A stretch of 64,000 bases of DNA from an uncultured Pseudomonadales bacterium (GTDB lineage: Bacteria > Patescibacteriota > Microgenomatia > UBA1400 > PJMF01). Location of the stretch: contig CAZYBC010000005.1 of NCBI GenBank assembly GCA_964645645.1, positions 702 through 64,701 of the forward strand. Direction: 5' to 3'. The number at the start of each line of letters is the position of its first letter. Position 1 is the first letter of the stretch. This document shows positions 21,100 to 46,840 of this stretch, piece after piece. The notes under the pieces are model-generated. The model saw nothing but the letters and a program-made list of their open reading frames with translations, made no database searches and was not told the DNA's origin. The translations under genes were made by a program, and so were the position numbers.

Positions 21100-22650
21100 T
21101 TATCTTCTCAATAGATGAATAATTGGCCCATCTGGAATAATTAACTGCTCACTAATTTTTTTATTAGGAAAGGTGATTATTTCATATAGCTCAGATTTAT
21201 TTGGGTCAAAATTCTGTTTAAGTTCATCAATTACTACTAAATTTTGAGCTTGGCTACTTAATTCAAAATCAATTGGTGGGTGATTCATTGTAGATAGAAA
21301 ATAACGGTAGTTTTGACCATGAAGGTCATTAGTAATACTCAAAAGAATTAAACTATAACTTTCATTGGGCGGTACAAAATCAGTCACGGCTTGAGCTGTT
21401 TTTTGGATGTCTTTAATTGTCCAGCCAGCAGTTTGCCAGATTGGATTTTGTAAATTAAATTGAAAAATTAAATAGCTAAGAAAAATAAATCCAATTAATA
21501 CGACTAAATTTTTAATAAAATCTATTTTAGGAAGTTTAAAATTTAATAAACTATTAATTACGATGGCATAAACTAAAGCTGTTACAGGAAAAAGGTAGGC
21601 AATATAATGATCAAAAATACTGTTTTGATAAAAAGCTGTTCCTAAAATTCCAATAAAAAGAAAAATGGCAATAATGGTTGTTGGTGTAAGCTGATTGTTT
21701 TTAGCTCGTTTTTGTTTTACCACTACGGTAATTAATAAAATTAAAATAAAGCTATAAGCTAAAATCTGATTTAGCTGACGATTTTTTCCAATCATATATT
21801 CAAAAAGAATATGCATTGCTCTGCCTTCAGATTCACTCAAAGTTTTAAAAACTTTAGTTGTTAGCGGCTGATGGGTATTAGTAGAAAAATTTTCTCCTTG
21901 AGTTAATAGATTTTTAAAAGCTTTAAAATTTAAGCCATCATGTTTTAAATCAAAAAGGAATAATGGGGTTAAGCTAGCTAGAAAAATTAAAAAACCAATT
22001 AAAGTATATTTAAGATGTTCTAAATTAATTTTCTTTTGAAGTAAATAAATTAACCAAATTAATCCAGCCGTTCCTGCAGCTAATAAAGTTAAATAATGAA
22101 GTTGTAATAAAACAGCTATGCAAGTAAAAATTCCCAGCCAAAGTTTGGGATTTTTTTGTACTTTAAATAGTAAATAAATCATAATTATGCTAACTAAAGG
22201 AGCTGGATTAGGATTCCAACTAAAACGAGTTTGAGCGGCAATTGTAAAAGAAAAGGCATAAAAAAAGCTGGCAATTAAAGCAATTTTTTCATCAAACATT
22301 TTTTTAGCAAATAGATAAAGTAATAAAATTGTCATAATTCCTAAACAAGCAACAGCATAAATTGGCCCCATTGGACTAGGATATGACAAAAATAAAAAAG
22401 GCAACATAAAATAATAATAAAGTGGGCCTAAATACATGTTTCCCACACTAGTAACTGGGCCGATAAAAACCAAATCTTTTTCTTTAAAAATTTTGGAAAC
22501 AATTAAAGCATCACGACCTTGGTCACCTAAAAACTGTTGACTATTTTCTAGATTATATAAACGCAAAAAAGCTCCAGCTAATAAAATAATAATGAAAATT
22601 TTATCAGCCATACTTAATTGAGTAATAAATTGAATTAATTTTTTTAACAT
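21100..22650 (-). CDS. Polytopic membrane protein, 'DQxRD...GPxYYY' family (putative GT-C glycosyltransferase), paralog 1 of 4
   Basis: The N-terminal loop LGDQGRDALIVSKIF...FIGPVTSVGNMYLGPLYYYFMLPF aligns with ORFs 38271, 42852 and 45275. It has 12 or more TM segments. Confidence 0.45.
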   Translation of the reverse strand: MLKKLIQFITQLSMADKIFIIILLAGAFLRLYNLENSQQFLGDQGRDALIVSKIFKEKDLVFIGPVTSVGNMYLGPLYYYFMLPFLFLSYPSPMGPIYAVACLGIMTILLLYLFAKKMFDEKIALIASFFYAFSFTIAAQTRFSWNPNPAPLVSIIMIYLLFKVQKNPKLWLGIFTCIAVLLQLHYLTLLAAGTAGLIWLIYLLQKKINLEHLKYTLIGFLIFLASLTPLFLFDLKHDGLNFKAFKNLLTQGENFSTNTHQPLTTKVFKTLSESEGRAMHILFEYMIGKNRQLNQILAYSFILILLITVVVKQKRAKNNQLTPTTIIAIFLFIGILGTAFYQNSIFDHYIAYLFPVTALVYAIVINSLLNFKLPKIDFIKNLVVLIGFIFLSYLIFQFNLQNPIWQTAGWTIKDIQKTAQAVTDFVPPNESYSLILLSITNDLHGQNYRYFLSTMNHPPIDFELSSQAQNLVVIDELKQNFDPNKSELYEIITFPNKKISEQLIIPDGPIIHLLRR

Positions 22651-22658
22651 GGGCAGTG

Positions 22659-23855
22659 TTAATTATTTTTTTTCTTTTTCCAAATAAAAGTGTTATAAGC
22701 GAAAAAATTCCAGAACATACCAATTAAAATGCCTACTACGGCAATAATAGTTCCTAAATCTAAATCATAATTAATGATTGGCAATTTAAATAAAATTGGG
22801 AAGACAGCCAAGCCATTTTCTTGAGTAGCAAATAATCTTTCTCCCAAAAAAGCTAAAAATTGTTGAATTAAAATAGAACCCCCGCTAGCAAAATTAAATT
22901 TAATAAATTTACTTGGGATTTCGCTAAGCTTAAGCTTTCTATCTGCAAAAGTCCAAATGTTATTAATAGCAAAATTAATTAAAACAGCACATTCAATAGC
23001 GGCAAAATAAGCAGCCTGATAAGGTAAAAATAATCTAAAAGCTTGTAAAGAAATTAGTTGAGTTAAGGCTCCAATTGTACCAACCACTAAAAATTTAAAA
23101 ACTCGGCTCTCTAAAATTTCTTGAGTTCTAACTTTAAATAAATAAGAAAGATTATTAATAATAATTTTAAAAGAATTAATTTTGCTAGTACCAATAGTGC
23201 GATCTTTAAAGTGAAAAGGTATCTCCGTAATTTTAAATTTCTTTTTAAAAACTTTATGCAAAAACACAATTTGAAAAGTATAACCAGTAAAACGTGGATC
23301 ATTCATTTCATTTCCCACTGCCATAAAAACTTTTTTAGTAATCGCTCTATAACCACCAGTCCAGTCAGCAATCTTAAAATCAGTTAAAATAATTCTAATG
23401 ATTAAATTACCAAACACACTTAAAAATTTGCGGTGAATACCCCAATTAGAAGGAATACTGCCACCTTTAATGTATCTTGAGCCTAAAACCATATCATAGC
23501 CATGATCAATTTTATCTAAAAAGGCAGGAATTTTAGTAGGATCATGTGATAAATCAGCATCAAATTCAAAAATCACATCAGCATCTAGCTTGTAAAAAGC
23601 CTGTTTCATGCCAGCTAAATAGGCAGCTCCTAAACCAGCTTTCTTCTTATTAATGAGCAGATGTAAATTTTTTTGTTTTTTTTGTAATTCTTCTACAAAT
23701 TCATAAGTTTTATCTGGTGAACTATCATCAACCACTAAAATATGACAATCCCAATGTTGAGAGACTTTTTTAAAAGCTTCTTGAACCGCTAAAGTAGTTT
23801 GTTCAATATTGCCTCTTTCATTATAAGTAGGGATAATCACAATCGCTTTTGGCAT
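22659..23855 (-). CDS. GT2 polyprenyl-monophosphate-sugar synthase (DPM1/Ppm1-like) fused to a C-terminal GtrA-like TM domain
   Basis: VIIPTYNERGNI...ILVVDDSSPDKT...KKAGLGAAYLAG...FEFDADLSHDP is the DPM synthase signature. The C-terminal ~120 aa hold 4 TM segments (FKFLVVGTIGALTQLISLQAF), GtrA-like. Confidence 0.75.
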   Translation of the reverse strand: MPKAIVIIPTYNERGNIEQTTLAVQEAFKKVSQHWDCHILVVDDSSPDKTYEFVEELQKKQKNLHLLINKKKAGLGAAYLAGMKQAFYKLDADVIFEFDADLSHDPTKIPAFLDKIDHGYDMVLGSRYIKGGSIPSNWGIHRKFLSVFGNLIIRIILTDFKIADWTGGYRAITKKVFMAVGNEMNDPRFTGYTFQIVFLHKVFKKKFKITEIPFHFKDRTIGTSKINSFKIIINNLSYLFKVRTQEILESRVFKFLVVGTIGALTQLISLQAFRLFLPYQAAYFAAIECAVLINFAINNIWTFADRKLKLSEIPSKFIKFNFASGGSILIQQFLAFLGERLFATQENGLAVFPILFKLPIINYDLDLGTIIAVVGILIGMFWNFFAYNTFIWKKKKNN

Positions 23856-23860
23856 AAATT

Positions 23861-24847
<987 letters not shown>

Positions 24848-25795
24848 CTAATTTTGATTTCTATAAAAATTTAAAATCCTTGCTAAAGTTGGCTTAATAT
24901 CTTTGGTTTCTTGCCAACCTAAAGTCTTTACCTTGTGATTATCGGCAATAATTTGCGCAGTATCAAGTGGTCTAAATTTTTGTGGATCAACTTCTACTTT
25001 AATTTTAACCTGAGCTAAACTAATTAGCATCTCCAACATTGCTTGGATGCTGTAACCACGGCCACTGCCAAGGTTATATGTTTCACCAATTTCTCCTTGA
25101 TTCATTAATAAAATATAAGCTTTGACAATGTCTTTAACATCAGAAAAATCCCGAATACTATTTAAATTACCTACCATGATTTTATCTTGTAATCCTTGTT
25201 CAATTTTTACTATTTGACTAGCAAAATCGGCAATCACAAATCCTGGAGCTTGTCTTTCGCCAATATGATTAAAAGGTCTCACTCGGATAATATTTAAGTG
25301 ATGAGTTTGTTGATAGTTATAAGCCAGCATATCTTGAATAACTTTAGAAACGGCATAGGGATTAACTGGCCCTAAAGGAGTATTTTCATCTAATGGTTTA
25401 TCTTGTGGCTGATAAACTAAAGCACTGCCAATAGCTAAAATTTTAGCTTTAGGCGTGAATTGTTTTACAGCATGCAGAAGATTCAACTGTAACACTAAAT
25501 TATTTTCTAAAGTTTCTTTTTCTGCTTCATAACTACTGCCCACTGCGGCGGTAGCAGCCAAATGATAAATTTGGGTAGCTTGCAATTTTTCTATTAATTC
25601 AAAGGTAGCTTGCTGGTTGGTTAAATCAACCTGGTGAATTTGATTAGAACCTAACAAATTAGCCACATAGCCACCATGGCTGGAAATATTGGTGACATGG
25701 ATATTTTTATATTGTTGGGCAATTAGTTCTTCAACGAGATGTGAACCAACAAAACCAGTGCCTCCAGTAATTAAAATTACTTCTTGTTTAGACAT
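24848..25795 (-). CDS. rmd: GDP-4-keto-6-deoxy-D-mannose reductase (GDP-D-rhamnose forming, Rmd-like)
   Basis: An extended SDR (GGTGFVGSHL, PYAVSKV). RPFNHIGERQAPGFVIADFASQI and RDFSDVKDI match Rmd (RPFNHIGPGQ...FVI, RDFLDVQDV) rather than the Fcl/WcaG signature. It lies immediately downstream of gmd. Confidence 0.65.
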   Translation of the reverse strand: MSKQEVILITGGTGFVGSHLVEELIAQQYKNIHVTNISSHGGYVANLLGSNQIHQVDLTNQQATFELIEKLQATQIYHLAATAAVGSSYEAEKETLENNLVLQLNLLHAVKQFTPKAKILAIGSALVYQPQDKPLDENTPLGPVNPYAVSKVIQDMLAYNYQQTHHLNIIRVRPFNHIGERQAPGFVIADFASQIVKIEQGLQDKIMVGNLNSIRDFSDVKDIVKAYILLMNQGEIGETYNLGSGRGYSIQAMLEMLISLAQVKIKVEVDPQKFRPLDTAQIIADNHKVKTLGWQETKDIKPTLARILNFYRNQN

Positions 25796-25801
25796 AATAT
25801 T

Positions 25802-27076
25802 TTAGCGTCCAATGCCAATATATTTGAAGCCAGCAGCTTTTATCTTACTTGGATCAAATTGATTTCTGGCATCAATAAAGTAAGGTTTTTTAGTAGTTTT
25901 AATTGTAGCAAAATCAAAGCCAATAATCTCCGGCCATTCTACTAAAGCCATAATAACCTCAGCTTTTTGACAAGCTTCTGGTAAAGTTGATACTTGAGTA
26001 TAATTATCAAAATCAGGTTGATATTTAGCCATAGGATCAAAAGCCATGATTTTGGCACCCTTATCCATTAAAACTGGCACAATTTTAGTTGCTGGCGCTT
26101 CACGTAAATCATCGGTGTGGGGTTTAAAAGATAAACCTAAAACAGCGACAGTTTTGCCTGCAAAACCACCTACCTGTTGATCAAATTTATCCATTAATTT
26201 ATAAATTCTTTCTTCATTAAGTTGACTAATCTTATTAAGCAAATTGTTACTTTCTCCAACCGCCCTAGAATAGGCAGCTAATTCTTTAACATCTTTGGGG
26301 AAACAAGAACCACCATAACCCAAACCAGGATACCAATAATGGTTGCCAATTCTTTGATCAAAACCAATGCCTTTAATAACTTCCATTACATCAGCGCCAT
26401 TTTTTTCACACAAGTCTGCAATTTGATTAATAAAAGTAATACGAGTGGCTAAATAAGAATTAGCGGTATATTTAGTCATTTGAGCTGAATTAGGATTCAT
26501 TCTTAGGATAGTGGTTTTTAGTGGCTGATGAAGTTCTTCTAATTTTTTAAAGACAAATTCATTAGTAGCGCCAATAATAACTCGATCTGGATTTAAAGTA
26601 TCAGCTACTGCACTGCCTTCTTTAAGAAATTCTGGCAAACTGGCTGTATGAAATTTAGTCTTAGTTTTAGCTTTAAGTGCTTTTTCTACTTTATTTAAAG
26701 TACCAGGAGGCACAGTAGATTTAACTACCACAATGGCATCTTGCTTAAGATATTCAGCCATTGCTTCACAGCTAGCAAAAACATATTTTAAATCTGCCTG
26801 ACCATCAGCAGCACTTGGAGTACCAACAGCAATAATAATGACGTCGGCATCCTTAATAGCAGTTTGATAGTGAGTGGTAAAAGTTAAACGACCAGTTTTT
26901 TGTTGTTCAGTTAATAATTCTTCCAGATTCGGTTCATAAAAAGGCACTTTGCTTTTTTTAAGGCTCGCGATTTTTTTCTCATCAACATCAAGACCAATGA
27001 CTTGATGACCAAAAGAAGCGTAGACAGCGCTACTAACAACTCCTACAAAACCAGTACCAATAATCGTTATGTTCAT
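25802..27076 (-). CDS. Nucleotide-sugar 6-dehydrogenase (UDP-glucose/GDP-mannose dehydrogenase family)
   Basis: Rossmann IIGTGFVGVV and catalytic-Cys motif GGSCFPKD. The ORF-track start at 27115 is TTG, so the ATG at 27076 (MNITIIGTGFVG) was chosen. Confidence 0.8.
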   Translation of the reverse strand: MNITIIGTGFVGVVSSAVYASFGHQVIGLDVDEKKIASLKKSKVPFYEPNLEELLTEQQKTGRLTFTTHYQTAIKDADVIIIAVGTPSAADGQADLKYVFASCEAMAEYLKQDAIVVVKSTVPPGTLNKVEKALKAKTKTKFHTASLPEFLKEGSAVADTLNPDRVIIGATNEFVFKKLEELHQPLKTTILRMNPNSAQMTKYTANSYLATRITFINQIADLCEKNGADVMEVIKGIGFDQRIGNHYWYPGLGYGGSCFPKDVKELAAYSRAVGESNNLLNKISQLNEERIYKLMDKFDQQVGGFAGKTVAVLGLSFKPHTDDLREAPATKIVPVLMDKGAKIMAFDPMAKYQPDFDNYTQVSTLPEACQKAEVIMALVEWPEIIGFDFATIKTTKKPYFIDARNQFDPSKIKAAGFKYIGIGR

Positions 27077-27116
27077 AATAGGGTACAATATACTTATTAA
27101 TATAACAGATGCCAAG

Positions 27117-27767
27117 ATGCAGATTAATATCTTAACTCTATTTCCAGACTTTTTTAAAGGGGCTTTAGAAACCTCTATTTTAGCGCGAGCTCAAAAAGCT
27201 GGTTTAATAACTTTTAAAATTATTAATATCCGTGATTTTGCCACAGATAAACACCATCTTACCGATGAACGGCCCTTTGGCGGTGGCCCAGGAATGGTGA
27301 TGAAAATAGAGCCAATTGATAAAGCTCTGCAAGCTTTAAAACTAGCCACAAAATTAAATTGTAAAACTATTTTAACTTCAGCTAAAGGCGGATTATTTAC
27401 TCAAAAACTTGCTCAAGAATATGCGCAATTAGATGAATTAACCATTATCTGTGGTCATTATGAAGGTGTAGATGAACGAGTAGCTGAGCATTTGGTAGAT
27501 GAAGAAATCAGAATCGGGGACTATGTTTTAACTGGCGGTGAAAGTGCGGCTTTAGTAATTAGTGATGCTGTAAGCCGCTTAATTAAAGGCGTGCTAGGTA
27601 ATGAAGAAAGTAATCAGAACGAATCGCATAGCCAAGTTGGTGAATTAGCTCATCCTGTTTACACTCAGCCCAGAGTTTATAAAGATTGGGCTGTTCCAGA
27701 AATTTTACTTAGTGGTGACCATCAAAAAATTAAAACCTGGCGGAAAGAACAAAGAAAAACTAGTTGA
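27117..27767 (+). CDS. trmD: tRNA (guanine37-N1)-methyltransferase
   Basis: MQINILTLFPDFF, DERPFGGGPGMVM and a SPOUT knot region. The second ATG was chosen to avoid overlapping the divergent upstream gene. Confidence 0.9.
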   Translation: MQINILTLFPDFFKGALETSILARAQKAGLITFKIINIRDFATDKHHLTDERPFGGGPGMVMKIEPIDKALQALKLATKLNCKTILTSAKGGLFTQKLAQEYAQLDELTIICGHYEGVDERVAEHLVDEEIRIGDYVLTGGESAALVISDAVSRLIKGVLGNEESNQNESHSQVGELAHPVYTQPRVYKDWAVPEILLSGDHQKIKTWRKEQRKTS

Positions 27768-28173
27768 TTTTAAATTGCTGGGTGATTTTTTTTTGTAATT
27801 TTTTAAAATCTTGATCAAAAGTAAAAATTTGTTTAATTTGATATTGATCAATAATTGCTGCTGAATAGCAATCTATCCAGCTAAGATTTTTATTTTTAAT
27901 TTGTTTAAAAATTTTCCATGTTTGAGTAAGCAATTTAGTTTTTTCAGTTAATATTAAAGTCTGAGGATTATTTTGCAGTTTTTCGACAAATTTAAGAGTA
28001 GTTTGTTTATCAAATCTCATGCTGCCTACAGTAAGAATTTCTCCAATTACCGCCCAGCTAGTGACAAAATGATCAATCTTAAGATTTTGCTTGATAATTT
28101 TTAAAGCTTCAAGATGATTAGTATCGTGTTGATTAAGTAAACTTAGATAAAAACTTGTATCAATAAAAGTCAT
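27760..28173 (-). CDS. vapC: PIN-domain ribonuclease toxin (VapC-like)
   Basis: The PIN acidic quartet context is present: FIDTSF (D5), VIGEIL (E), WIDCYS (D), FTFDQDF (D). About 137 aa. Overlaps the upstream RHH gene by 4 bp. Confidence 0.7.
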   Translation of the reverse strand: MTFIDTSFYLSLLNQHDTNHLEALKIIKQNLKIDHFVTSWAVIGEILTVGSMRFDKQTTLKFVEKLQNNPQTLILTEKTKLLTQTWKIFKQIKNKNLSWIDCYSAAIIDQYQIKQIFTFDQDFKKLQKKITQQFKIN

Positions 28174-28403
28174 TTTTGATAAAGGGTTTTTTTATAAGTA
28201 GTAGATAATTGTGGATCAGCTTTAATTGCTGGATCAGAAATTTTGCTTAATTCTAACAAAATATTGCTATTTTCAGCTTGTTCTTGAAGAAAATCATTAA
28301 TTAAACTTCTAATTAAATTAGAAATATTAAGAGCCTTTTTTTCAGCGATTAATTGTAAAGTTTGCTTATCTTTATCTGGTAAACGAATAATAAGTTGAGC
28401 CAT
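28170..28403 (-). CDS. vapB: Ribbon-helix-helix (CopG/Arc-like) antitoxin, VapB-type
   Basis: MAQLIIRLPDKDKQTLQLIAEKKALNISNLIRSLI is an RHH beta-strand plus two helices. The ORF track extends it to 28439, but the ATG at 28403 is preferred. Confidence 0.6.
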   Translation of the reverse strand: MAQLIIRLPDKDKQTLQLIAEKKALNISNLIRSLINDFLQEQAENSNILLELSKISDPAIKADPQLSTTYKKTLYQK

Positions 28404-28523
28404 ATTAAAATGATTGAGATTTTGTATTACGTATTGCATTATATTAATTAAACCAAAGATAGTAAATATTTAGTTACTGCTATTTATAACAAACAAAAAT
28501 GAAAAAATTATGAAAAAAATAAA

Positions 28524-29411
28524 CTAAATTTTAATCTCTTTAATTGCACTTTTAATGTTCTTTAGTTGAAAATCTAAAATATTTTTTAATTTACTGCAAT
28601 CTAAGGCTGTATTTTTTTGGTAAGGCCGATTTAGAGTTTTTAAATAAGCACTTAAATCACCTTTTTTGACCTCTCCTGGTAAGTTTAAACCTTCTTTAAG
28701 AGCTAGAGCAAAATCATAATCGCTCCATTTTTCACCACTGCTAGCGTGAAATAAACCAGTTTGCTGAGTACGGATAATAAAATCAATAATTTTAGCAAAG
28801 TCATCAACAAAAGTTGGCCCGAAATAATGATTATCAAACATTGGATAAAGTTGATTAGCTTGTAAACCCTGAATAATTTTATGAGCCATATCAGCTCTTT
28901 CAAAACGATCAGAACGGAATGGTTGATCAATACGTAAAATTGTCCAGTTAAGATCACTATTAGTCACGGCTTCTTCTGCCCAAGCTTTGGTTTGACCATA
29001 CCACTCAATTGGTTGCATCACATCATTTTCGCTGTATAAATCTTCTTTTTCGCCATTAAAAACATAAGCCGTAGAAATATGGATTAAATGTTTGCCAGTT
29101 TGTTCGCAAGCTTTAATAATATTTTTAGTGCCATCAACATTAATTTTATAAACTAAACCATTTTTATCACCTTGTTGATTCCAAGCGGCAGTGACATCTG
29201 TAAAAGCAGCTAAATGCAAAACAAATTTAGCTTCAGGAGTTTGTGCAAAAGCCTGTATCACACTTTCATAATTAGTGATATCCACTGGTTGAGTTGGATG
29301 TCTTAAATCTAAACTATGAAATTGATATTCTTGTTTAAAATCATTGGCAAATTTAGAACCAACTAAACCATTTAAACCAGTTGTAATAATTGTTTCTTGC
29401 ATATTAACCAT
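28524..29411 (-). CDS. RmlD-like NAD(P)-dependent sugar-nucleotide reductase (dTDP-4-dehydrorhamnose reductase family)
   Basis: An extended SDR without a long N-terminal Rossmann loop. ISTAYVFNGEKEDLYSENDVMQPIEWYGQTKAWAEEAV resembles RmlD STDYVFxG...YGKTKLAGE. It overlaps rmlB by 8 bp. Confidence 0.55.
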   Translation of the reverse strand: MVNMQETIITTGLNGLVGSKFANDFKQEYQFHSLDLRHPTQPVDITNYESVIQAFAQTPEAKFVLHLAAFTDVTAAWNQQGDKNGLVYKINVDGTKNIIKACEQTGKHLIHISTAYVFNGEKEDLYSENDVMQPIEWYGQTKAWAEEAVTNSDLNWTILRIDQPFRSDRFERADMAHKIIQGLQANQLYPMFDNHYFGPTFVDDFAKIIDFIIRTQQTGLFHASSGEKWSDYDFALALKEGLNLPGEVKKGDLSAYLKTLNRPYQKNTALDCSKLKNILDFQLKNIKSAIKEIKI

Positions 29412-30417
29412 ATTTTTCTTGAAAATATTTTTTGTTTTTTTCTTTTAGTGCTTGCCACCACCATTGATTATCTTGGTACCATTGAATGGTTTTGGTTAAA
29501 CCTTCTTCTAAATTAACGCTGGGCTTCCAGCCTAATTCGCGATTAATTTTAGACCAATCAACACTATAACGGCGATCATGGCCAGGACGATCATTAATAA
29601 ATTCAATTTTATTTTCATCTTCATTCATTAAATTAAGAATCATTTTGCAGATTTCTAAATTAGAGACATCTTTATTTAAGCCACCAATTAAATAAGTTTC
29701 ACCAATTTGACCATTTAATAATACGGCTTCTATAGCACTGCAATGATCTTGAACATATAACCAATCTCGTACATTTAAGCCATCACCATAAACTGGAATT
29801 TTTTTACCTTCGATTAAATTTGTAATGGCTAAAGGAATAAATTTTTCTGGAAAATGATATTCACCATAATTATTAGAACAATTAGTGAGAGTGTAGGGTA
29901 AACCATAAGTTTCTCCATAGGCTCTTACCAAATGATCACTGCTAGCTTTGCTGGCTGAATAAGGACTTCGTGGATCATAGGGAGTTTGTTCATTGAATTT
30001 TTCCTCAGTATCTAAAGCCAATGAACCAAAAACTTCATCAGTAGAGATATGATGAAAACGCTTAATTTTATTTTTTAAAGCGGCATCTAAAAGAGTAAAA
30101 GTCCCGTTAACGTTAGTATCCAAAAAAATTTCTGGATTACTAATAGAACGATCAACGTGAGATTCAGCTGCAAAATGTACTACGGTACTAACATCATCCA
30201 TAATTTTTGCCACTAATTCTTTATCAGTAATATTACCTTCAATAAAAACATAATTAGGATTATTTTCTAAATCTTTTAGGCTATCTTTATTACCGGCATA
30301 GGTTAAAGCATCAAGGTTAATGATTTTATAATCAGGATGATTTTTCATCCAATAATGAATAAAGTTAGACCCAATAAAACCGGCTCCGCCAGTTACTAAT
30401 ATAGTTTTTTCTTTCAT
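29404..30417 (-). CDS. rfbB: dTDP-glucose 4,6-dehydratase
   Basis: ILVTGGAGFIGSNF, HFAAESHVDRS, PYSASKASSDHLVRAY and YTLTNCSNNYGEYHFPEKFIP are classic RmlB motifs. Confidence 0.85.
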   Translation of the reverse strand: MKEKTILVTGGAGFIGSNFIHYWMKNHPDYKIINLDALTYAGNKDSLKDLENNPNYVFIEGNITDKELVAKIMDDVSTVVHFAAESHVDRSISNPEIFLDTNVNGTFTLLDAALKNKIKRFHHISTDEVFGSLALDTEEKFNEQTPYDPRSPYSASKASSDHLVRAYGETYGLPYTLTNCSNNYGEYHFPEKFIPLAITNLIEGKKIPVYGDGLNVRDWLYVQDHCSAIEAVLLNGQIGETYLIGGLNKDVSNLEICKMILNLMNEDENKIEFINDRPGHDRRYSVDWSKINRELGWKPSVNLEEGLTKTIQWYQDNQWWWQALKEKNKKYFQEKYG

Positions 30418-30672: not shown

Positions 30673-30690
30673 TGGACTTAGTATATCAGT

Positions 30691-30923: not shown

Positions 30924-32069
30924 TTATTGATTAGCATTAAGTTTTAACAAAATTTCGTTACGAAAATCATCAATATTTTTAATTGTATAAACCCATAAAT
31001 TTTCATAATAGAAATCTGGAGGATTATAAAGTACCCCAGAAGGATCTGATGGATCAGTGCTTAAAGTTTGACCGACAATTTTGAGTTGATTAATAGTCGG
31101 TAAAAGAGCGCTCACTGTAGCAAATAAATCAACCAGACTTAAGGCTTGAGAATAATTTTGGTTATAAAAATTAATAATTTTTCCACCTATCTCAGGATGA
31201 TCATAAAAATATTGAGGATCTCCAACTTTATTGAAAAAAGCCTTGAATACTTCCTGTTGACGTTCACCTCTGGCGATATCATTACCTTCGTCATCAGCGC
31301 TTTTTCTTGATCTGATATATTGTAAAGCTCTTTTTCCAGACATTAATTGTTTGCCAGATTCAAAAGTAACGGTTTCATAAAGTAAATTCGGATCAGTTAC
31401 AGTGCTGATATCAACATCACTTTTAGGAAATTCTGTATCAGTAAAACCTTCAGCCACCTCAACTTCAATCCCACCAACAACATCAATTAATTGTTCTAAT
31501 TGTTCTAAAGATAAAACTAAAGTGTGATCAATATGAATATTAGTTAATTCACTAATTACTTGAGCTGGAAATTGAGTTGGATTAGTTTGATTACGCTCAT
31601 AACCATAAGCGAGTAAAGCATTAATTTTAGTTTGATAAGATTCGCTCCAAATATCTCTAGGTAAAGAAAGAATATTGATAGTGCCAGTATCAAAATGAAT
31701 TCTAACAATCATCATCGTATCAGTAAGAGGCGGAATATCACCTCGACTCTCTAAAGTATCTACTCCAAGCAAAAGAATAGTGGTTTCGGTTCTATTGGCT
31801 TCTTGATAAAGCTGGCTTTTATCATATCCAGTTTGAACCATAGAAAGCAAATTTCTAACTGGAATTTGAGCAGTAGATTCAAAAGCTTGGTATTTTTTAC
31901 TAAAAATAATAAATAAAATAGCTGAAGATAACCAAATTAAAAAAATACAAGTAAAAATAAAATAAGCAAACCAAGATAATTTTCTTTTCTTTTTTAAAGG
32001 TTGATTTTGATCATTGCTAGTATTAATTTGATCTTCCATAATGGGAAAATTCTGATTATTTTGATCCAT
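30924..32069 (-). CDS. LytR-CpsA-Psr (LCP) family glycopolymer phosphotransferase/ligase
   Basis: An N-terminal TM is followed by the LCP core TTILLLGVDTLESRGD...TDTMMIVRIHFDTGTINILSLPRDIW...INALLAYG. Confidence 0.8.
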   Translation of the reverse strand: MDQNNQNFPIMEDQINTSNDQNQPLKKKRKLSWFAYFIFTCIFLIWLSSAILFIIFSKKYQAFESTAQIPVRNLLSMVQTGYDKSQLYQEANRTETTILLLGVDTLESRGDIPPLTDTMMIVRIHFDTGTINILSLPRDIWSESYQTKINALLAYGYERNQTNPTQFPAQVISELTNIHIDHTLVLSLEQLEQLIDVVGGIEVEVAEGFTDTEFPKSDVDISTVTDPNLLYETVTFESGKQLMSGKRALQYIRSRKSADDEGNDIARGERQQEVFKAFFNKVGDPQYFYDHPEIGGKIINFYNQNYSQALSLVDLFATVSALLPTINQLKIVGQTLSTDPSDPSGVLYNPPDFYYENLWVYTIKNIDDFRNEILLKLNANQ

Positions 32070-38201: not shown

Positions 38202-38270
38202 CTTATTTTTCTACTATTTATTGTTTCATAATAATCCTATTATAATCCTATTATAATAACAAAGATATAA

Positions 38271-39830
38271 ATGAAAAAATATAAACACCTTTTACTTTTT
38301 TGGTTAATAATTTTGATTTCTAGAGCAATCTTCGCTTTTTTTTGTAATACTTTCGGTCAAGATGTCGCTAGAGATTTAGTTGTAATTGATCAACATCGTA
38401 AAACAGGACAACATCTTTTTTATTATGGCCCTAAGGCTAGTGTGGCTAATTTTTATTTACCTCCTGCTTATTATCAAGTTCACTATTTATTGTCTTTAGT
38501 TACGAGCAATCATCCTTATACCATGAAGTTTTTTACTATTTTTTTGGAATCTTTGACTCCGATTATTTTATATTTAGTATTAAAAAAAATTGGTTTAAAA
38601 AATTATGCTTTAATTGGTGCCTTTTTATATGCAATTAGTTATTTTCCAGCAAATTTTGGTATTCAAGCATGGAATCCCAATACGATTCCTTTTTTTAGCA
38701 CTTTATTTTTATTGCTGTTACTTATTTATTTAGAAAAAGACAAACCAAAATTTTTATTAGGTGCAATTATCTGTTTAAATTTGGCAGTTCAATTTCATTA
38801 TCAAGGCGTGGTTTTAGGTTTATTTACATCCATAATTGCAATTTATCAATTAAGTAAAAATTTTAAAAAATATTGGGCAAATTGGATACTAGCAAGTTTA
38901 TTAATGATTGGATTGTTTACACCTTATTTTATTGGCGAAATGAAGAATCATTGGCAAAATACTCAAGCAATTATTACTTATTTTACTGGAGAACATAAAA
39001 ATTATTATCAACGAGTGTCTAAACCAGATTATGTCTTAACTTTTATTCCATCTTTTTTTGAAATGGTGATGATTGGTAAACATCAAGCATTTAAATTTTT
39101 AGGGCGTTTAACCTTTTTTATTGGATTTGCTATTTGGTTTAGGACAATTTTTATTAATAGAAAATCTCAACAGCAAACTGCTAAAAATTCACGTTGGGTC
39201 TTTATTTATTTTATCTGTATTTTATTAATGTTTAGAGTTTATAAAGGCGATAAAGTTAGTTATTACATGAGTACTATTTTTATTTTGCCTAGTATCTTAT
39301 GGGGATTTTTGTGGCAATTTAAGAAAAAAATTACTATTATTTTGACTATGTTGATGGTGTTTTTAATTGGTCAACAATTTGCTCAAGTAAATTTTCGTAA
39401 TGATTTGAAACAAATTAAAAATGAGATTAATTTGTTAGAAGCTAATTTGCCTCAAAAAGAAATTGCTCTTTTTTTTCATAATTCAGAACAAATTAATACT
39501 TATGTTTATGCTTTAGATAAATTTTCCAATCTTAAAATTAACCAACAGAGCAAAATTTTAGTAGAAGTTTGCCATAAAACTAATATCTTATGCAATAATG
39601 TTCATCGACAAGTTTGTCAAAATTCTAAAACTCAGGTTTATACTTTGCTTTTAAGAGATCAATTTGCTATGCAAACAATTAAAGTGCTTGAATTTCCTGA
39701 ACAACAAAAATTTTGTATTAATCAATTAACTCAAGATTTACAACCATTACATTATCAATATTATAATTATAATTTTGAATATGGTTCAGATGTTTTAATT
39801 CCTGAAATTGCTAGATATAATCAATATTAA
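38271..39830 (+). CDS. Polytopic membrane protein, 'DQxRD...GPxYYY' family, paralog 2 of 4
   Basis: FGQDVARDLVVIDQHRKTGQHLFYYGPKASVANFYLPPAYYQVHYLL aligns with the DQGKD/GPxxxxxxxxGPAYYY loop of ORFs 21100, 42852 and 45275. Confidence 0.45.
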   Translation: MKKYKHLLLFWLIILISRAIFAFFCNTFGQDVARDLVVIDQHRKTGQHLFYYGPKASVANFYLPPAYYQVHYLLSLVTSNHPYTMKFFTIFLESLTPIILYLVLKKIGLKNYALIGAFLYAISYFPANFGIQAWNPNTIPFFSTLFLLLLLIYLEKDKPKFLLGAIICLNLAVQFHYQGVVLGLFTSIIAIYQLSKNFKKYWANWILASLLMIGLFTPYFIGEMKNHWQNTQAIITYFTGEHKNYYQRVSKPDYVLTFIPSFFEMVMIGKHQAFKFLGRLTFFIGFAIWFRTIFINRKSQQQTAKNSRWVFIYFICILLMFRVYKGDKVSYYMSTIFILPSILWGFLWQFKKKITIILTMLMVFLIGQQFAQVNFRNDLKQIKNEINLLEANLPQKEIALFFHNSEQINTYVYALDKFSNLKINQQSKILVEVCHKTNILCNNVHRQVCQNSKTQVYTLLLRDQFAMQTIKVLEFPEQQKFCINQLTQDLQPLHYQYYNYNFEYGSDVLIPEIARYNQY

Positions 39831-41164: not shown

Positions 41165-41167
41165 CCT

Positions 41168-42862
41168 ATGAAAAAATCTTTAGCTTTAACAAAAAAAGAA
41201 TGTTTAATTTTTACTTTAATTCTTTTAATTGCCTTTCTAGTTCGGTTTATTAAAATTACCACCATCCCGATCGCTTTTAATCGTGATGAGCTGGCTTTGG
41301 CTTATAATGCTTTTAGTATTGCGCAAACAGCAAGAGATGAACGGGGTAATTTTTTACCCCTTAATTTTGAATCTTTTGGCGATTGGAAACTTCCTGGTTA
41401 TATTTATAGTCTTGTGCCTTTAATCAAGATTTTTGGGTTGAATGATTTGATAGTTAAATTACCTTCATTCTTAGCTGGCTTAGGAATTATTGTCATTAGT
41501 TTTTTTCTCATGCGTTTATGGCTGGATAAAAAAGACTCAAAATTAGCTTTTATGCTAATGTTTTTTTTAAGCATTTTGCCCTGGGCGGTTCATACTTCTA
41601 GAATTGCTTATGAGGCTAATTTAGCTTTATTTTTATTTAGTTTAGGAATATTAAGTTTTGAATTATTTAAAGAATCTTATTTGAAAGCTAAACAAATTAA
41701 ACTTTATTTAATCTGCTTAGCTGGTTTAAGCTTTTTTCTAACTTTACTGACTTATCATGGTTTTCAAATAGTTACTCCTTTATTTTTACTAGCTTTATTA
41801 ATAATTGAAAAAGAATTTTTATTAAAATTATTTAAACAAAATAAAAATGTTTTATTAATTCCAACAATTCTATTTTTATTATTAACAACACTATTTTTTC
41901 TAGCTGGCACTAAAAAAGCTAATACTGTTAAGGGCAGTGGCTTGTTAATTCTTAATCAAAGTTATCAAAACGAAATTTATGAAAAAAGAAATTTTCTTAA
42001 AAATAAACCGTTAATAGCAAAAATTTACGTTAATAGTTTATCTCTTAAATTAGCTAGTTTAAGAGATAATTTTTTTCAGACTTTTTCTTGGGATTTTTTA
42101 GTAACCAGTGGTGGTAAAAATGGCGCTCACAATATTAGTTTAATTGGTAATTTATACCCTTATGAAATAATTTTTATTTTTATAGCTTTATTTTATTTTT
42201 TTACTGAAAAAAAATTGTGGCAAAAAAAAGTTTTACTTTGGCTTATTACTGCCTCAGTTGCACCCATTTTAACCACTGCCCCAAATCACACAATCAGATT
42301 TATCGCGGGGATGATTCCTTTAGAAATTTTATCAGTCTATGGCTGTTATAAAGTTTATTTAAAATTTAAACATAAAAAATTTATAATTTTTATGTTACTT
42401 ATTACTTTAATTTACAACTGGTTTTATTATTTTGTCTCTTACTTTTTAGTTGCTCCATTAAAAGATGTTAATAGACATAACTGGGCTTTAAAAGAAATCA
42501 GTCAAGAAATTCAACAAAAAAAAGACCATTATGACTTAGTAATGATTGATGAATCTGGAACTTCTCTTTATATTTATTTGCTTTATTATTGGCAATATGA
42601 CCCTAAAAAACTTAGTAGCAATTTAGTTTATTATCCTCATGATGATGAAGGTTTCTCTCATGCTCAAGCTTTAGAAAATGTTGTTTTTGCCTTACCTAAT
42701 TTTATCGAAAATGAGAATAAAGATTATCAAAAAATTTTATATGTTTTAAAAAAATCACAAGTTCCAGAATTTATCTGGATCCAAGGTCATTATAAATATC
42801 TTAAGGAATTTAAAAATGACTATGCTAAAGAGACTTATGTCATGTTTGAATATGAAAAATAA
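41168..42862 (+). CDS. GT-C glycosyltransferase, PMT/ArnT-like ('DE' family core paralog)
   Basis: IAFNRDELALAYNAFSIAQTARDERGNFLPLNFESFGDWKLPGYIYSLVPL, and the C-terminal motif TAPNHTIRFI. Aligns with ORFs 49776 (C-terminal domain), 52174, 53871 and 55579. Confidence 0.6.
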   Translation: MKKSLALTKKECLIFTLILLIAFLVRFIKITTIPIAFNRDELALAYNAFSIAQTARDERGNFLPLNFESFGDWKLPGYIYSLVPLIKIFGLNDLIVKLPSFLAGLGIIVISFFLMRLWLDKKDSKLAFMLMFFLSILPWAVHTSRIAYEANLALFLFSLGILSFELFKESYLKAKQIKLYLICLAGLSFFLTLLTYHGFQIVTPLFLLALLIIEKEFLLKLFKQNKNVLLIPTILFLLLTTLFFLAGTKKANTVKGSGLLILNQSYQNEIYEKRNFLKNKPLIAKIYVNSLSLKLASLRDNFFQTFSWDFLVTSGGKNGAHNISLIGNLYPYEIIFIFIALFYFFTEKKLWQKKVLLWLITASVAPILTTAPNHTIRFIAGMIPLEILSVYGCYKVYLKFKHKKFIIFMLLITLIYNWFYYFVSYFLVAPLKDVNRHNWALKEISQEIQQKKDHYDLVMIDESGTSLYIYLLYYWQYDPKKLSSNLVYYPHDDEGFSHAQALENVVFALPNFIENENKDYQKILYVLKKSQVPEFIWIQGHYKYLKEFKNDYAKETYVMFEYEK

Positions 42863-44348
42863 ATTGTTATTTTTTCTTTTATTTTTAATTATTATTACGA
42901 GAATATTTTTTCTATTAGATCAAAACGTTAATTTTGTTTTTGATCAAGGAAAAGATTCTTTAGCAATTTTAAATATTTGGTTAAATAAAAAACCTACTTT
43001 AATAGGTCCTTGGACAAGTATCCCAGGACTTTTTTTTGGGCCAGCTTATTATTACTTATTATTACCGTTTTATATGTTGGCTAATGGCAATCCTGTTTTT
43101 GCTACAATCCCGATGATTCTTTTATTGTGTATTGCTGTAATTATCTTTTATTATAAATTTAATAAAACAGCAGCTTTAATTTTAGCCACTTCTACTATTG
43201 CCTGGACTATTACAACTAGTGCTTGGAATCCATTCCCAATGGTTTTAATTAGTACTTTAATTTTATATTTTTTAGAAAAAATAAAGGGTAAAAATTTAAA
43301 AAAGGATTATTTTTTTATTGGCTTAACAGCTTCTTTAGGATTTCATTTTTCAACAGCTTTTGCTATTTTTTATCCAATTATTATTGCTTTAGTTTTATTA
43401 CTCAATAAAATTAAAATAAATTTTAAAAAGATTTTCTTATTAATGATGGGATTTTTTCTTCCATTTATACCTCAATTAATTTTTGAAATTAGACATAATT
43501 TCATCCAAACAAAAGCAATCTTAGAATATTTAAAAAATGGAGAAAGTCAAAATTTGGGTTTAAGTAAATTATTATTAGTACTCAAAGACTCATTATCTGA
43601 ATTTAAAGTTTACAGTTTACCTAAATTTAATTTTTTCAATATTAAAATAAGCGATATTTTACTATTAATTTTATCTATTTATAGTCTTTATTATTTATTA
43701 AAATTTAAGAATAAATTGAACAAAAAAAAGATTATAGAAACCTTAATCTGGCTTTTTATTCCTTTTGCTTCTTACTATTTTTTACATTTCAATTTTTGGT
43801 ATTTGTTAGGCTTAGCTCCCATTGTGATTTTAACAGTTAGTAAAATTATTAATAAATTACCTATAAGTTTAAAAAATATAATTTTATTTTTATTTATTCT
43901 GAATCCATTATTTCAATTAAATAATTATTATCAAAATAAAAATTTCATTAATAATACTGGTGATTTTTTAAAAAACAAAACAGAAGTTATTAGTTACATT
44001 TATCAGCAAGCTAATAGTCAGTCTTTTGCTTCTTATCAATATGAACCTGCCATTTATGACTACAGCTATCAATATTTATTCTTCCAAAAAGCTCTAACTG
44101 GTGAAAAATTACCTTTTGAATTTTCTTATAAACCAGGAGAAATTAGCTATATTAAAGAGAAACCAGAATTATTACAATATTTTGCTAATAAAATATATCA
44201 AGAGCCTCCTCAAAAAATATTTTTTATCGTTGAAAAAGCAGAAAATGAGGCTTATTTAAAATCATGGTGGAATCAACAACATTATTCTAAAATTATTTCT
44301 GAAAGAAATTTTGGATCTAGTATAAAAGTATATGAAGCCTTACCATAA
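42852..44348 (+). CDS. Polytopic membrane protein, 'DQxRD...GPxYYY' family, paralog 3 of 4
   Basis: FVFDQGKDSLAILNIWLNKKPTLIGPWTSIPGLFFGPAYYYLLLPFYML. The ORF-track start at 42816 overlaps the upstream gene by 47 bp, so the internal MKNKLLFF start was chosen. Uncertain. Confidence 0.45.
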   Translation: MKNKLLFFLLFLIIITRIFFLLDQNVNFVFDQGKDSLAILNIWLNKKPTLIGPWTSIPGLFFGPAYYYLLLPFYMLANGNPVFATIPMILLLCIAVIIFYYKFNKTAALILATSTIAWTITTSAWNPFPMVLISTLILYFLEKIKGKNLKKDYFFIGLTASLGFHFSTAFAIFYPIIIALVLLLNKIKINFKKIFLLMMGFFLPFIPQLIFEIRHNFIQTKAILEYLKNGESQNLGLSKLLLVLKDSLSEFKVYSLPKFNFFNIKISDILLLILSIYSLYYLLKFKNKLNKKKIIETLIWLFIPFASYYFLHFNFWYLLGLAPIVILTVSKIINKLPISLKNIILFLFILNPLFQLNNYYQNKNFINNTGDFLKNKTEVISYIYQQANSQSFASYQYEPAIYDYSYQYLFFQKALTGEKLPFEFSYKPGEISYIKEKPELLQYFANKIYQEPPQKIFFIVEKAENEAYLKSWWNQQHYSKIISERNFGSSIKVYEALP

Positions 44349-44354
44349 ATTTAT

Positions 44355-45245
44355 ATGACTCTTTCTGTTGTTATTAATACTAAAAATGCAGAAGCTACTT
44401 TAAAAAAGTGTTTGGATTCAGTGAAGTTTGCTGATGAAATTATTATTGTTGATATGCATAGTCAAGATAAAACTCTTGAAATTGCTCAAAAATATACCAA
44501 TAAAATTTTTACTTATAAAGATGTCGGGTTTGCTGATCCAGCCAGAAACTTTGCTTTGTCTAAAGCTACTCAAAATTGGATTTTAATTGTTGATGCTGAT
44601 GAAGAAGTGCCTATTAGTTTAAAAAATAAAATTTTGGCTTTAATTGCTGAATCCAATAATACGCCAGCCTACTTTATTGCTCGTAAAAATATTATTTGGG
44701 ATAAATGGATTGAACATACTGGCTGGTGGCCAGATTACCAATTAAGATTTTTTAAACGAGGTGCTATTGATTATCCAGCTAAGATTCACACTAAGCCTCA
44801 AGCGCCTCAAAACAGTCAGTTTTTACCAGCCCAAGAGGATTTAGCCTTAATTCATTATAATTATCCAACTATTAGTAGCTTTTTAGAAAAAATGAATCGC
44901 TATACGGACTTAACTGACATTGCAGTTAATAAATTTGACGCTCAAGCTGTTTTAGATAAATTTTTTGCTGAATTTTTGGCTAGATATTTTGTTCATCAAG
45001 CTTATTTAGATGATTTAAATGGAACCGCCTTAGCTTTAGCTCAAAGTAGTTATGAATTATTTACCTATCTAAAAGCTTGGGAAAAACAAGGTTATAAATT
45101 TAATAAAAATAATCAACAAACTACTTTTGCCTTTTGGCGTAAGTTAAATAAAGATCTTAACTATTATTTAGCTGATTTCCAGGTTAAAAACACCACGGGC
45201 TTTAGTAAATTTTATTGGCAAATTAGACGTAAATTTAAGATTTAA
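44355..45245 (+). CDS. GT2 glycosyltransferase, WaaE/KdtX-like (paralog 1 of 3)
   Basis: LSVVINTKNAEATLKKCLDSVKFADEIIIVDMHSQDKT...ILIVDADEEVP follows the LSVVIxTKNEExxIxxCLxSVxWADEIIVVDSGSTDxT pattern of this GT2 subfamily. Confidence 0.7.
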   Translation: MTLSVVINTKNAEATLKKCLDSVKFADEIIIVDMHSQDKTLEIAQKYTNKIFTYKDVGFADPARNFALSKATQNWILIVDADEEVPISLKNKILALIAESNNTPAYFIARKNIIWDKWIEHTGWWPDYQLRFFKRGAIDYPAKIHTKPQAPQNSQFLPAQEDLALIHYNYPTISSFLEKMNRYTDLTDIAVNKFDAQAVLDKFFAEFLARYFVHQAYLDDLNGTALALAQSSYELFTYLKAWEKQGYKFNKNNQQTTFAFWRKLNKDLNYYLADFQVKNTTGFSKFYWQIRRKFKI

Positions 45246-45274
45246 AATTATTTTAGAATTACTATAATATAATA

Positions 45275-46840
45275 ATGACAATCTCAAACAATAATACTTC
45301 AAAAAAAACTTGGCTTTTACTTTTTATCATTTTTTTATTATCAATTTGTTTACGTTATTTAGCTTTACTTGATTATAAAATTGTTTTTTGGTTTGATCAA
45401 AGTCGTGATGCATATATTTCTCAACAAATTATTAATAATCATGATCTAAAAATATTAGGTCCTTCGGCAAGTGGTACCAATGATACTATTTATCATGGTG
45501 TATTGTATTATTATTTTATTGCTCCATTTTATATTTTAAGTAAAGGTAATCCCTTATTACCAGCTTTAGCTTTATCTATTTTAGGAGCAACCGGAATTTT
45601 TCCATTATTTTTCTTTACAAAAAGTATTTTTAAATCTGCTAAAGTGTCTTGGCTATCTGTAATATTTTTTTCTTTTTCAGTAGAAATTGTTCAACTTTCG
45701 CATTGGCTATCTAACCCTTCTCTAGCTGTTATGCCATTAATTATTTTTTATTGGTCACTTTGGGAAAGTGCTTATCAAAATAAAAATAAATTTTTAATTC
45801 CTTTAGCACTTTCTTTAGGTGTTTGTTTACAAAGTGCTATTTGGCTTATATATCTTATGGGTTCATTATTAATTGCTATTATCTATAATTATGATCATTT
45901 TGGTAAAAAATCTCTTTTCATCAAATGGAAAAAATTATTATTGCCTTCTTTTTTAGTTATATTATTGATTTCAACTATTATATTAGGCCAAATTATGCTT
46001 TGGAAAAACCATGTTTTTAGTTTAAAAAATTTGCATGGTAATAATAGTCAAATCAGTATTGCTAATCAGATTGTTGGTTTATCCAATATGTATATAACTA
46101 AAGTATTACAGAGCATAACACCGTCTTCTCCGATTATTTCTTTAGTTTTATTTATTGTAATTTTATTGCAACTTACTAAGTTGAATCATCCTCAAAAACT
46201 TTTTTTCTTGTCTTGGATTTTGGCTCCTTTTTGGCTTTATATTATTGAATGGCGTAATAGTTTACATATGTTAATTTCTTTAGAAACAGTTTTATTTATT
46301 TTATTATCGGTTGCTTTAAACCAATTATGGAAAGACAAAAGACCTGTCCTAAAATGTTTAATGTTAATACTAGTAATAATTTTTATAATAACTAATTTAG
46401 TTCAATTACAAAAATATCGTAATAATGCTAGTAGCATTTTTTCTCCACAGCAAGGAACTGATTTATCAATGCAAAGAGAATTAATTGAATATACTTATAA
46501 AAAAGCCAATGGTCAAAATTTTTCTTTTTCAGTTTTTAGTAATCCATATGGATATTTTATTACTTGGGCTTATTTATATAATTGGTACAATATAGAACAG
46601 AATAAAAATTATTTACCCACTTATATAGGCCCAGATCAAAATGGATTATTTGGAAAAGAATTATTACCACGTAGTGATGTGCCAAAAAATAATTTACATT
46701 TTACTATCATAGAGCCTAATTTAGGCAGTGTTCCTGAAATTATTTTTCAAAAATTTATGCAAGAACAGGATTCTTTTGGAGAAGTAATTGAAAAACAACA
46801 ATTTGGTAGTACGCTCATTTATATGAGGCATGTTAATTAA
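45275..46840 (+). CDS. Polytopic membrane protein, 'DQxRD...GPxYYY' family, paralog 4 of 4
   Basis: VFWFDQSRDAYISQQIINNHDLKILGPSASGTNDTIYHGVLYYYFIAPFYIL. Confidence 0.45.
   Translation: MTISNNNTSKKTWLLLFIIFLLSICLRYLALLDYKIVFWFDQSRDAYISQQIINNHDLKILGPSASGTNDTIYHGVLYYYFIAPFYILSKGNPLLPALALSILGATGIFPLFFFTKSIFKSAKVSWLSVIFFSFSVEIVQLSHWLSNPSLAVMPLIIFYWSLWESAYQNKNKFLIPLALSLGVCLQSAIWLIYLMGSLLIAIIYNYDHFGKKSLFIKWKKLLLPSFLVILLISTIILGQIMLWKNHVFSLKNLHGNNSQISIANQIVGLSNMYITKVLQSITPSSPIISLVLFIVILLQLTKLNHPQKLFFLSWILAPFWLYIIEWRNSLHMLISLETVLFILLSVALNQLWKDKRPVLKCLMLILVIIFIITNLVQLQKYRNNASSIFSPQQGTDLSMQRELIEYTYKKANGQNFSFSVFSNPYGYFITWAYLYNWYNIEQNKNYLPTYIGPDQNGLFGKELLPRSDVPKNNLHFTIIEPNLGSVPEIIFQKFMQEQDSFGEVIEKQQFGSTLIYMRHVN

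Follow-up and report, generated by a model that had tools for sequence, protein, structure and literature searches.

A glycan-biosynthesis island in a Patescibacteria genome encodes four ancient paralogs predicted to be GT-C glycosyltransferases

A stretch of 64,000 nucleotides from contig CAZYBC010000005.1 (assembly GCA_964645645.1), hereafter the window, encodes four membrane proteins, here called paralogs A to D (Table 1), which an earlier note on this DNA had grouped by a shared N-terminal loop motif and proposed as a divergent, possibly undescribed subfamily of GT-C glycosyltransferases. All four open reading frames (ORFs) exist, and in pairwise BLASTP comparisons they matched one another with E-values of 1e-9 to 1e-21 (A-C 1.2e-21, A-D 4.6e-18, A-B 1.8e-16, C-D 5e-16 and B-C 1.1e-9) at 25-33% identity, mostly over the N-terminal ~250 amino acids (aa). 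A hidden Markov model (HMM) of the family recovered exactly four strong members from the window (A 561, C 414, D 318 and B 306 bits), and the next ORF, at 67 bits, aligned only downstream of the motif region. A generalised form of the motif, D-x2-[KR]-D-x(12-22)-G-P-x2-S-x(4-9)-[GPA]-[PV]-x-[YWF]-Y, was matched by A, B, C and D and no other of the 60 window ORFs of at least 100 aa, by 148 of 154 diverse family members taken from clusters at no more than 50% identity, and by none of 20,000 shuffled sequences. The genome is AT-rich (GC content 0.23-0.34) and F, I, L and Y abound in its membrane proteins, which would favour a chance or low-complexity likeness between hydrophobic proteins. However, given the BLASTP E-values down to 1e-21, the scores of 306-561 bits for the paralogs against at most 67 for other GT-C proteins, the absence of the motif from the shuffled sequences and the invariance of its residues over the 154 homologs, such an explanation retains practically no probability and we regard it as already refuted. 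As judged from these comparisons, the four ORFs are true paralogs, anciently diverged members of one family.

The motif strings listed in the earlier note proved to be real but were attached to the wrong coordinates: GDQGRD belongs to the ORF at 21100 (-), FGQDVARD to that at 38271, FDQGKD to 42816 and FDQSRD to 45275. From its summary pattern, DQ[GS][KR]D followed by two GP pairs and YYY, the ORF at 38271 deviates with D-V-A-R-D, P-P and Y-Y-Q and that at 45275 with G-V; a spacing of 8-10 residues between the GP pairs does not hold throughout, the distance being 9 residues in A, B and C and 11 in D. Nor is the Gln of D-Q a fixed residue: B has V at this position and the other three paralogs have Q, with family-wide counts of 93 for Q, 33 for H, 17 for E and 4 for V. 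The third ORF had been started at 42852; the ATG at 42816 is the more likely start of paralog C because a Shine-Dalgarno-like AAGGA lies 8 nt upstream of it, with no such site at 42852.

A profile built from the four paralogs retrieved 8979 clusters (50% identity) at E ≤ 1e-3; 5337 remained at a cut-off of 1e-10 and 1382 at 1e-30, and homologs of paralog A alone number more than 1131. Conservation of the motif in these relatives is pronounced. With residues numbered as in paralog A, D43 was present in 153 of the 154 diverse members and D47 in all of them, as were G64, P65 and S68 (each 154/154); Y79 was found in 152 and Y80 in 147, W145, N146 and P147 in 141-152, and H185 in 142. The set that is invariant family-wide comprises D43, D47, G64-P65, S68, Y79, P93 and N146-P147, and the entire motif block of A was invariant in 37 orthologs. 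Representatives of the clades scored 280-530 bits against their own paralog and 45-110 bits against the next one, and the four-clade alignment contained no conserved stretch of 7-10 columns common to the clades. By these scores, the family comprises four or more clades of ancient origin, and the source genome carries one copy from each of the four. In clade B, the C-terminal domain (about residues 430-450 of B) carries three conserved Cys that clades A, C and D lack; the trio fits an extracytoplasmic, disulfide-stabilised domain, and a DsbA-like protein is encoded at 10312-11130.

The source names of the homologs were all Patescibacteria (Pacebacteria, Woesebacteria, Beckwithbacteria, Curtissbacteria and Microgenomates), and a pattern scan of species-representative genomes found a clade A relative in 359 genomes. 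Many records of metagenome-assembled genomes (MAGs) with the clade A operon described below bear the title 'uncultured Pseudomonadales bacterium' (isolate HK-STAS-PATE-16 is one example). Gene content and protein similarity place those MAGs in the Patescibacteria, and the titles look like a taxonomic mislabelling. A search of viral contigs for copies of the family found none, and a phage-borne seroconversion origin is therefore unsupported.

Fold comparison and profile alignment both led to the GT-C class. The AlphaFold (AF2) model of paralog A (pLDDT 87.5, pTM 0.88) gave ArnT (5F15) as its best solved match in Foldseek (E 4.5e-7, TM-score 0.58), with further matches to AglB/STT3/PglB, ALG9/12, DPY19, Pmt4 and Emb/Aft; every significant match (E ≤ 1e-3) was a GT-C enzyme. 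In hhalign, the family profile aligned with the orthologs of a protein O-mannosyltransferase (PMT)-like GT-C encoded at 17562-19091 with 98% probability (E 1.5e-13, 378 columns), and separate profiles of clades C, D and B did so with 93% (E 2.7e-7), 91% and 66%, respectively. The clade A profile matched D with 98.5% probability (E 2.6e-15), and no clade profile exceeded 17% against the neighbouring MptA_B-like protein. The broad 154-sequence profile aligned with E. coli ArnT over 292 columns (E 2.6e-5), and the narrow clade A profile did so without significance (E 0.11). Thus the GT-C membership proposed in the earlier note is borne out by borderline Pfam PMT_2 hits in three of the four ORFs, by the fold match of A and by the profile alignments of the family and, separately, of clades C and D with the PMT-like family, and the likeness it saw to the DExRYA motif of ArnT holds residue by residue, with DQGRDA falling on DETRYA.

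The likeness to ArnT (GT83; PDB 5EZM/5F15) extends to a multi-transmembrane (TM) N-terminal part, a first outside loop (EL1) with two juxtamembrane (JM) helices and a C-terminal outside domain. The hhalign alignment with the broad profile placed D43-Q44-G45-R46-D47-A48 on D31-E32-T33-R34-Y35-A36 of E. coli ArnT, Y73-L74-G75-P76 on F59-E60-K61-P62 of its YFEKP motif (58-62), and N146-P147 on D135-P136, so that D43, R46, A48, P76 and N146-P147 correspond position for position to D31, R34, A36, P62 and D135-P136. The family thereby possesses, in D43, the conserved first-loop Asp expected after TM1 in the GT-C_A class. This EL1 Asp is an active-site residue common to GT-C enzymes, being D55 in C. 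metallidurans ArnT and D77 in Pmt1, and in the former enzyme K85 binds the lipid phosphate (PMC7801869, whose numbering of C. metallidurans ArnT is used here). In the same way, D43-Q44 aligned on the 'DE' motif of the PMT-like family and GP.YYY on its TPL..W segment. We infer from the alignments that D43 and the family-specific D47, at the start of the first JM helix, are catalytic or acceptor-binding acids.

A topology for paralog A was derived from the AF2 helices and the positive-inside rule, Lys and Arg making up 10 of 39 aa in the short loops assigned to the cytoplasm and none of 14 aa in the short outside loops. Paralog A would accordingly have 11 TM helices, with its N-terminus inside and its C-terminus outside, against 13 TM helices in ArnT (PMC7801869). 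With this topology the family-conserved positions all lie in outside loops or at the outer ends of TM helices. In the model, DxxRD opens the first JM helix, and GP.YYY would open the second at the position of YFEKP in ArnT. A reading of the model with 13 TM helices was rejected, as it put WNP inside and Lys-rich loops outside; the helix at 76-89 was instead taken as juxtamembrane.

Paralog A is the fifth of eight genes in a tightly packed operon on the minus strand, with gaps of -4 to 24 nt and the order Ugd, Rmd, Gmd, Dol-P-Man synthase (DPMS)-like GT2, A, second GT2, MptA/B-like and PMT-like (Table 1). The order and orientation are conserved in 80 Patescibacteria species-level genomes, in which the orthologs of A are 39-52% identical, and most of the gene absences among the 80 loci are contig ends. 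Going by their database matches, Gmd and the Rmd-like reductase constitute a GDP-D-rhamnose pathway. The DPMS-like GT2 matched the P. furiosus Dol-P-Man synthase 5MLZ over its full length (E 1.7e-45), followed by ArnC (3e-15) and GtrB, and adjoins A in 70 of the 80 genomes. Since this DPMS-type synthase lies so close upstream of A and is kept there in most genomes, a polyprenyl-phosphate donor is predicted for A, and probably the donor of clade A is made from a GDP-sugar by this adjacent enzyme. Scans for promoters and terminators gave no enrichment over shuffled sequences, and thus no information on the operon boundaries. Downstream of the operon, both in the window (16182-17503) and at two other loci, come an ORF resembling histidine kinases and a gene for a response regulator. 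With the TTG listed as its first codon, Ugd would overlap the beginning of the divergent trmD (27069-27767, +) by 47 nt; alignments to its family set in only at residue 14, and translation therefore probably starts at Met14, an ATG near 27076.

Table 1. Coordinates in the window of the four paralogs, their motifs, the clade A operon and further island genes; the last column counts the loci with the gene among 80 conserved operon loci
Feature	Position	Strand	Description	Loci (of 80)
Paralog A	21100..22650	-	516 aa; clade A; predicted GT-C glycosyltransferase; clade signature F[LQ]GDQGRDA..IGPVTSVGNMYLGPLYYY..RFSWNPNP..QLHY
Paralog B	38271..39830	+	519 aa; clade B; clade signature F.QD[VQI]ARD..YGPKASVG.FYLPPFYYQ
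Paralog C	42816..44348	+	510 aa; clade C; clade signature F.FDHGKDS..IGPWTSIPGL.FGP.WYY..SAWNPFP..GFHFS
Paralog D	45275..46840	+	521 aa; clade D; clade signature FW[FY]DQ[SA]RDA..GPSASGTNDT.YHGV.YYY..WLSNP
Motif block of A	22411..22533	-	residues 40-80; F..DQGRDA...IGPVTSVGNMYLGPLYYY; predicted first outside loop, JM helix 1 to start of JM helix 2
Motif of B	38352-38477	+	F28-GQD31VARD35...G53P...S57...P64P.Y67YQ
Motif of C	42933-43055	+	F40-VFD43QGKD47...G64PWTS68...G75PAYYY80
Motif of D	45386-45514	+	F38-WFD41QSRD45...G62PSAS66...GVLYYY
Ugd (UDP-glucose 6-dehydrogenase), first operon gene	25802..27115	-	TIGR03026, 433 bits	61
Rmd-like reductase	24848-25795	-	matches GDP-6-deoxy-D-lyxo-4-hexulose reductase 2PK3, E 1.6e-56
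Gmd	23861-24838	-	TIGR01472, 450.6 bits (equivalog cut-off 415)	65
DPMS-like GT2 with GtrA/DPMS-type 4-TM domain	22659..23855	-	PF00535 and PF04138 (1.6e-14); 8 nt upstream of A
Second GT2, DPMS/ArnC-like	20323-21075	-		78
MptA/B-family GT-C	19088-20320	-	PF26314	73
PMT-like GT-C	17562-19091	-	PMT (PF02366) and PMT_2 (PF13231)	61
RmlD	28524-29411
RmlB	29404-30417
LCP ligase	30924-32069
Wzx-like flippase	33964-35457
PTPS_related membrane protein	58990-60615

With ArnT as the best structural match, homologs named 'ArnT-like' by JGI, an EL1 motif that aligns with DETRYA...YFEKP and Ugd, the first enzyme of the aminoarabinose (Ara4N) pathway, at the head of the clade A operon, the paralogs could be envisaged as genuine ArnT orthologs (GT83), which would attach aminoarabinose, or a cationic sugar akin to it, to lipid A or to a different lipid. 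However, the adjacent synthase is far nearer to Dol-P-Man synthase than to ArnC, and the operon lacks ArnA, ArnB and ArnD homologs; with neither a formyltransferase nor an aminotransferase nor a deformylase among its genes, it offers no context of an Arn pathway (ArnA-F) around paralog A. To our knowledge, bacteria of the Candidate Phyla Radiation (CPR) are reported to be without lipopolysaccharide, and we know of no lipid A in the host lineage, unlike in the bearers of ArnT. Moreover, the Tyr of RYA and the Lys of YFEKP are both required in ArnT (PMC5377068). Here, the R46-D47-A48 triplet aligns with RYA but holds an invariant Asp in place of the Tyr, and Leu-Gly stands in place of Glu-Lys, position 75 being Gly in 145 and Pro in 8 of the 154 members and Lys in none. 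Because the essential Tyr and Lys are replaced by Asp and Gly, the family members are not ArnT orthologs, and we consider this assignment very improbable.

A second assignment would make the paralogs bona fide protein O-mannosyltransferases (GT39/PMT) that start the O-mannosylation of secreted or surface proteins from polyprenyl-P-mannose. NCBI names homologs family 39 proteins with PF13231, the hhalign link to the PMT-like family is strong, a DPMS-type synthase adjoins A, and D43 falls on the catalytic Asp of 'DE'. The GT2 gene directly after C (44355-45245, +) has its nearest matches in GmaR (E 1e-18) and SunS-type peptide glycosyltransferases rather than in lipid-sugar synthases, and hints at cytoplasmic protein or peptide glycosylation within the island; a protein-glycosylating enzyme next to C would also suit the PMT assignment. 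In contrast to PMT and PMT_2 proteins (PF02366, PF13231), however, the family keeps the Asp of 'DE' and mostly not its Glu (E in only 17/150 relatives), has invariants of its own in D47, GP..S and WNP, and reaches Pfam scores that are at or below threshold or absent; PF02366 matched none of the four paralogs, and no MIR domain was found in them. The operon itself already codes for a more canonical PMT-like protein, matched by PF02366 as well as by PF13231, and the acceptor is not readable from sequence. We therefore regard true PMT function as unlikely.

The most likely function is the transfer, outside the membrane, of a polyprenyl-phosphate-linked sugar, either mannose or D-rhamnose, to a glycoconjugate of the envelope. 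In the proposed scheme for clade A, the DPMS-like enzyme would charge polyprenyl phosphate with mannose or, by way of Gmd/Rmd, with D-rhamnose, in either case from a GDP-sugar; the lipid-sugar would then reach the outer leaflet of the cytoplasmic membrane, and A together with the two other GT-Cs of the operon would transfer the sugar to an envelope acceptor, which may be a wall glycopolymer, a lipoglycan or a secreted protein. More generally, each paralog would take a polyprenyl-phosphate sugar at the outer face of the membrane and pass the sugar to an envelope acceptor. From sequence and model together, we consider it very likely that the four ORFs are integral-membrane GT-C glycosyltransferases of the ArnT/PMT structural class that act in this way, with the catalytic roles of the residues, the donor, the acceptor and the division of labour among the paralogs as its more conjectural parts.

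Several observations weigh against this explanation. Against the PMT_2 model (PF13231; cut-off 26.1 bits) A scored 26.0, B 29.8 and C 20.5 bits, borderline matches for three of the four ORFs, and D gave no hit. The AF2 model is that of paralog A only, and within it the invariant loop 64-72 has a pLDDT below 50, the GP..S loop thus being modelled with low confidence and perhaps mobile. Sequence searches of the PDB with the 4- and 37-sequence profiles returned nothing even at E ≤ 10, and solved structures were reached only through fold comparison and hhalign. In the latter, E. coli ArnT was a single-sequence template matched with 74.6% probability, and equivalences beyond the EL1 motif are tentative. 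The lipid-phosphate-binding Lys of ArnT is Gly in the family, and donor binding must therefore differ in detail from that of ArnT. Paralogs B, C and D do not lie next to a lipid-sugar synthase, which leaves their donors unconstrained. Lastly, what confines the family to Patescibacteria is a set of source names together with one pattern scan aimed at clade A only.

The clade A operon forms one end of some 45 kb of contiguous glycan-biosynthesis genes (window 17500-62700), encoding at least 13 GT-C-like proteins, at least nine GT2 and two GT4 enzymes. Between 32 and 48 kb its GC content falls to 0.23-0.28, and B, C and D lie there among GT-C-like proteins and GT2/GT4 genes. A YfhO-like protein is also encoded in the island, and ArnC/GtrB-like GT2 genes are found elsewhere in it, none of them adjoining B, C or D. 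By analogy, the LCP ligase, the Wzx-like flippase, RmlB/D and the ArnC/GtrB-like GT2 enzymes would fit extracytoplasmic decoration of a wall polymer as in three-component systems (PMC11127046). In other genomes, homologs of B, C and D occur in arrays of 500-600-aa membrane proteins without Pfam hits, and in GCA_039934415.1 the clade A operon is immediately bordered by an island with a D homolog. The window also contains a second multi-copy GT-C family (41168-42862, 52174-53868, 53844-55589, 55579-57138 and the C-terminal half of 49776-52184), with a canonical acidic first loop in the motif '[RW][DE]E.A.GY[ND]A.S ... SFGD[YW]K.P.Y.Y' and one copy fused to an N-terminal GT2 domain (802 aa); the earlier note, whose title speaks of a second paralogous family, probably had this one in mind as the 'first'.

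The mycobacterial MptA/MptB/PimE and Emb/Aft enzymes and the three-component GT-Cs (GtrC types, YfhO and GT136) likewise bring together an enzyme that makes the lipid-sugar, a putative flippase domain and a GT-C that acts outside (PMC11127046). These systems also resemble the present one in having multiple paralogous GT-Cs per genome, here accompanied by the MptA_B neighbour and by LCP and Wzx proteins in the island; the paralogs differ from all of them in showing no detectable sequence-level membership. Paralog A may belong to a Gtr-type arrangement, in that a GT2 with a fused GtrA/DPMS TM domain, which would have to serve as the flippase, is adjacent and syntenic, whereas no adjacent synthase was found for B, C or D.

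At the level of the acceptor, we lean, if only slightly, towards the paralogs being GT-Cs that build or decorate a glycan or lipoglycan, comparable to mycobacterial MptA/MptB/PimE/Emb-Aft or to the Gtr/YfhO/GT136 side-chain glycosylases, each adding a different sugar or linkage to a wall polymer or lipoglycan. The four ancient clades and the nine or more further GT-C-like proteins that share the island argue for this, as do the MptA_B-family neighbour, the island's LCP ligase, Wzx-like flippase, YfhO-like protein and RmlB/D, and the similar island that abuts the clade A operon in another genome. On the other side, B-D have neither an adjacent synthase nor an adjacent flippase, and we know of no CPR envelope glycan structure. 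The three-component paradigm itself is established (PMC11127046), and Saccharibacteria are inferred to possess PIM-like and polyprenyl-P-mannose pathways (PMC6031116), both of which speak for glycan building.

The suggestion that the subfamily is possibly undescribed held for part of the family. In NCBI and JGI, homologs from clades A and B already bear the names 'glycosyltransferase family 39 protein' or 'ArnT-like glycosyltransferase' together with PF13231, and hits to this model are precomputed for most clade A homologs and almost no clade C homologs. For clade C, 119 of 120 homologs among the matches listed had no Pfam hit and every name given was 'hypothetical protein', and clade D homologs are mostly unannotated hypothetical proteins. 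A model dedicated to the family was found in neither Pfam nor NCBIfam, and searches of the literature on GT-C enzymes of CPR/Patescibacteria gave nothing specific; a description of the family, the GT-C assignment of clades C and D and the conserved operon were not found in the databases and papers searched. The family is thus an uncharacterised branch of a known enzyme class, whose fold, catalytic logic and genomic logic are all known, and no new kind of enzyme or mechanism is revealed. A bolder proposal, which we hold to be quite unlikely, is that it constitutes a distinct GT-C family eligible as a new CAZy family, with a D-x3-D active site devoid of the ArnT Lys, and that clade A uses polyprenyl-phospho-D-rhamnose for a conserved envelope glycoconjugate of Pacebacteria/Woesebacteria/Microgenomates-type Patescibacteria. 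The DPMS-like enzyme would in that case make the D-rhamnose lipid donor from GDP-D-rhamnose supplied by the adjacent Gmd/Rmd; we know of no lipid-phosphate-linked D-rhamnose donor that has been described.

Hundreds of 'hypothetical' clusters in clades C and D can now be assigned to a GT-C glycosyltransferase family, which gains a diagnostic motif with D43 and D47 as candidate catalytic residues. The envelopes of CPR/Patescibacteria are almost uncharacterised, yet their small genomes spend a very large share of sequence on glycan genes, and the eight-gene operon offers a concrete target for a conserved surface glycoconjugate of these episymbiotic bacteria. Beside these genes, a PIN-domain ORF (27760-28173, -) lies between trmD and the Rml genes, and the only tRNA of the window is a tRNA-Gln(CTG) at 15932-16003 (-).

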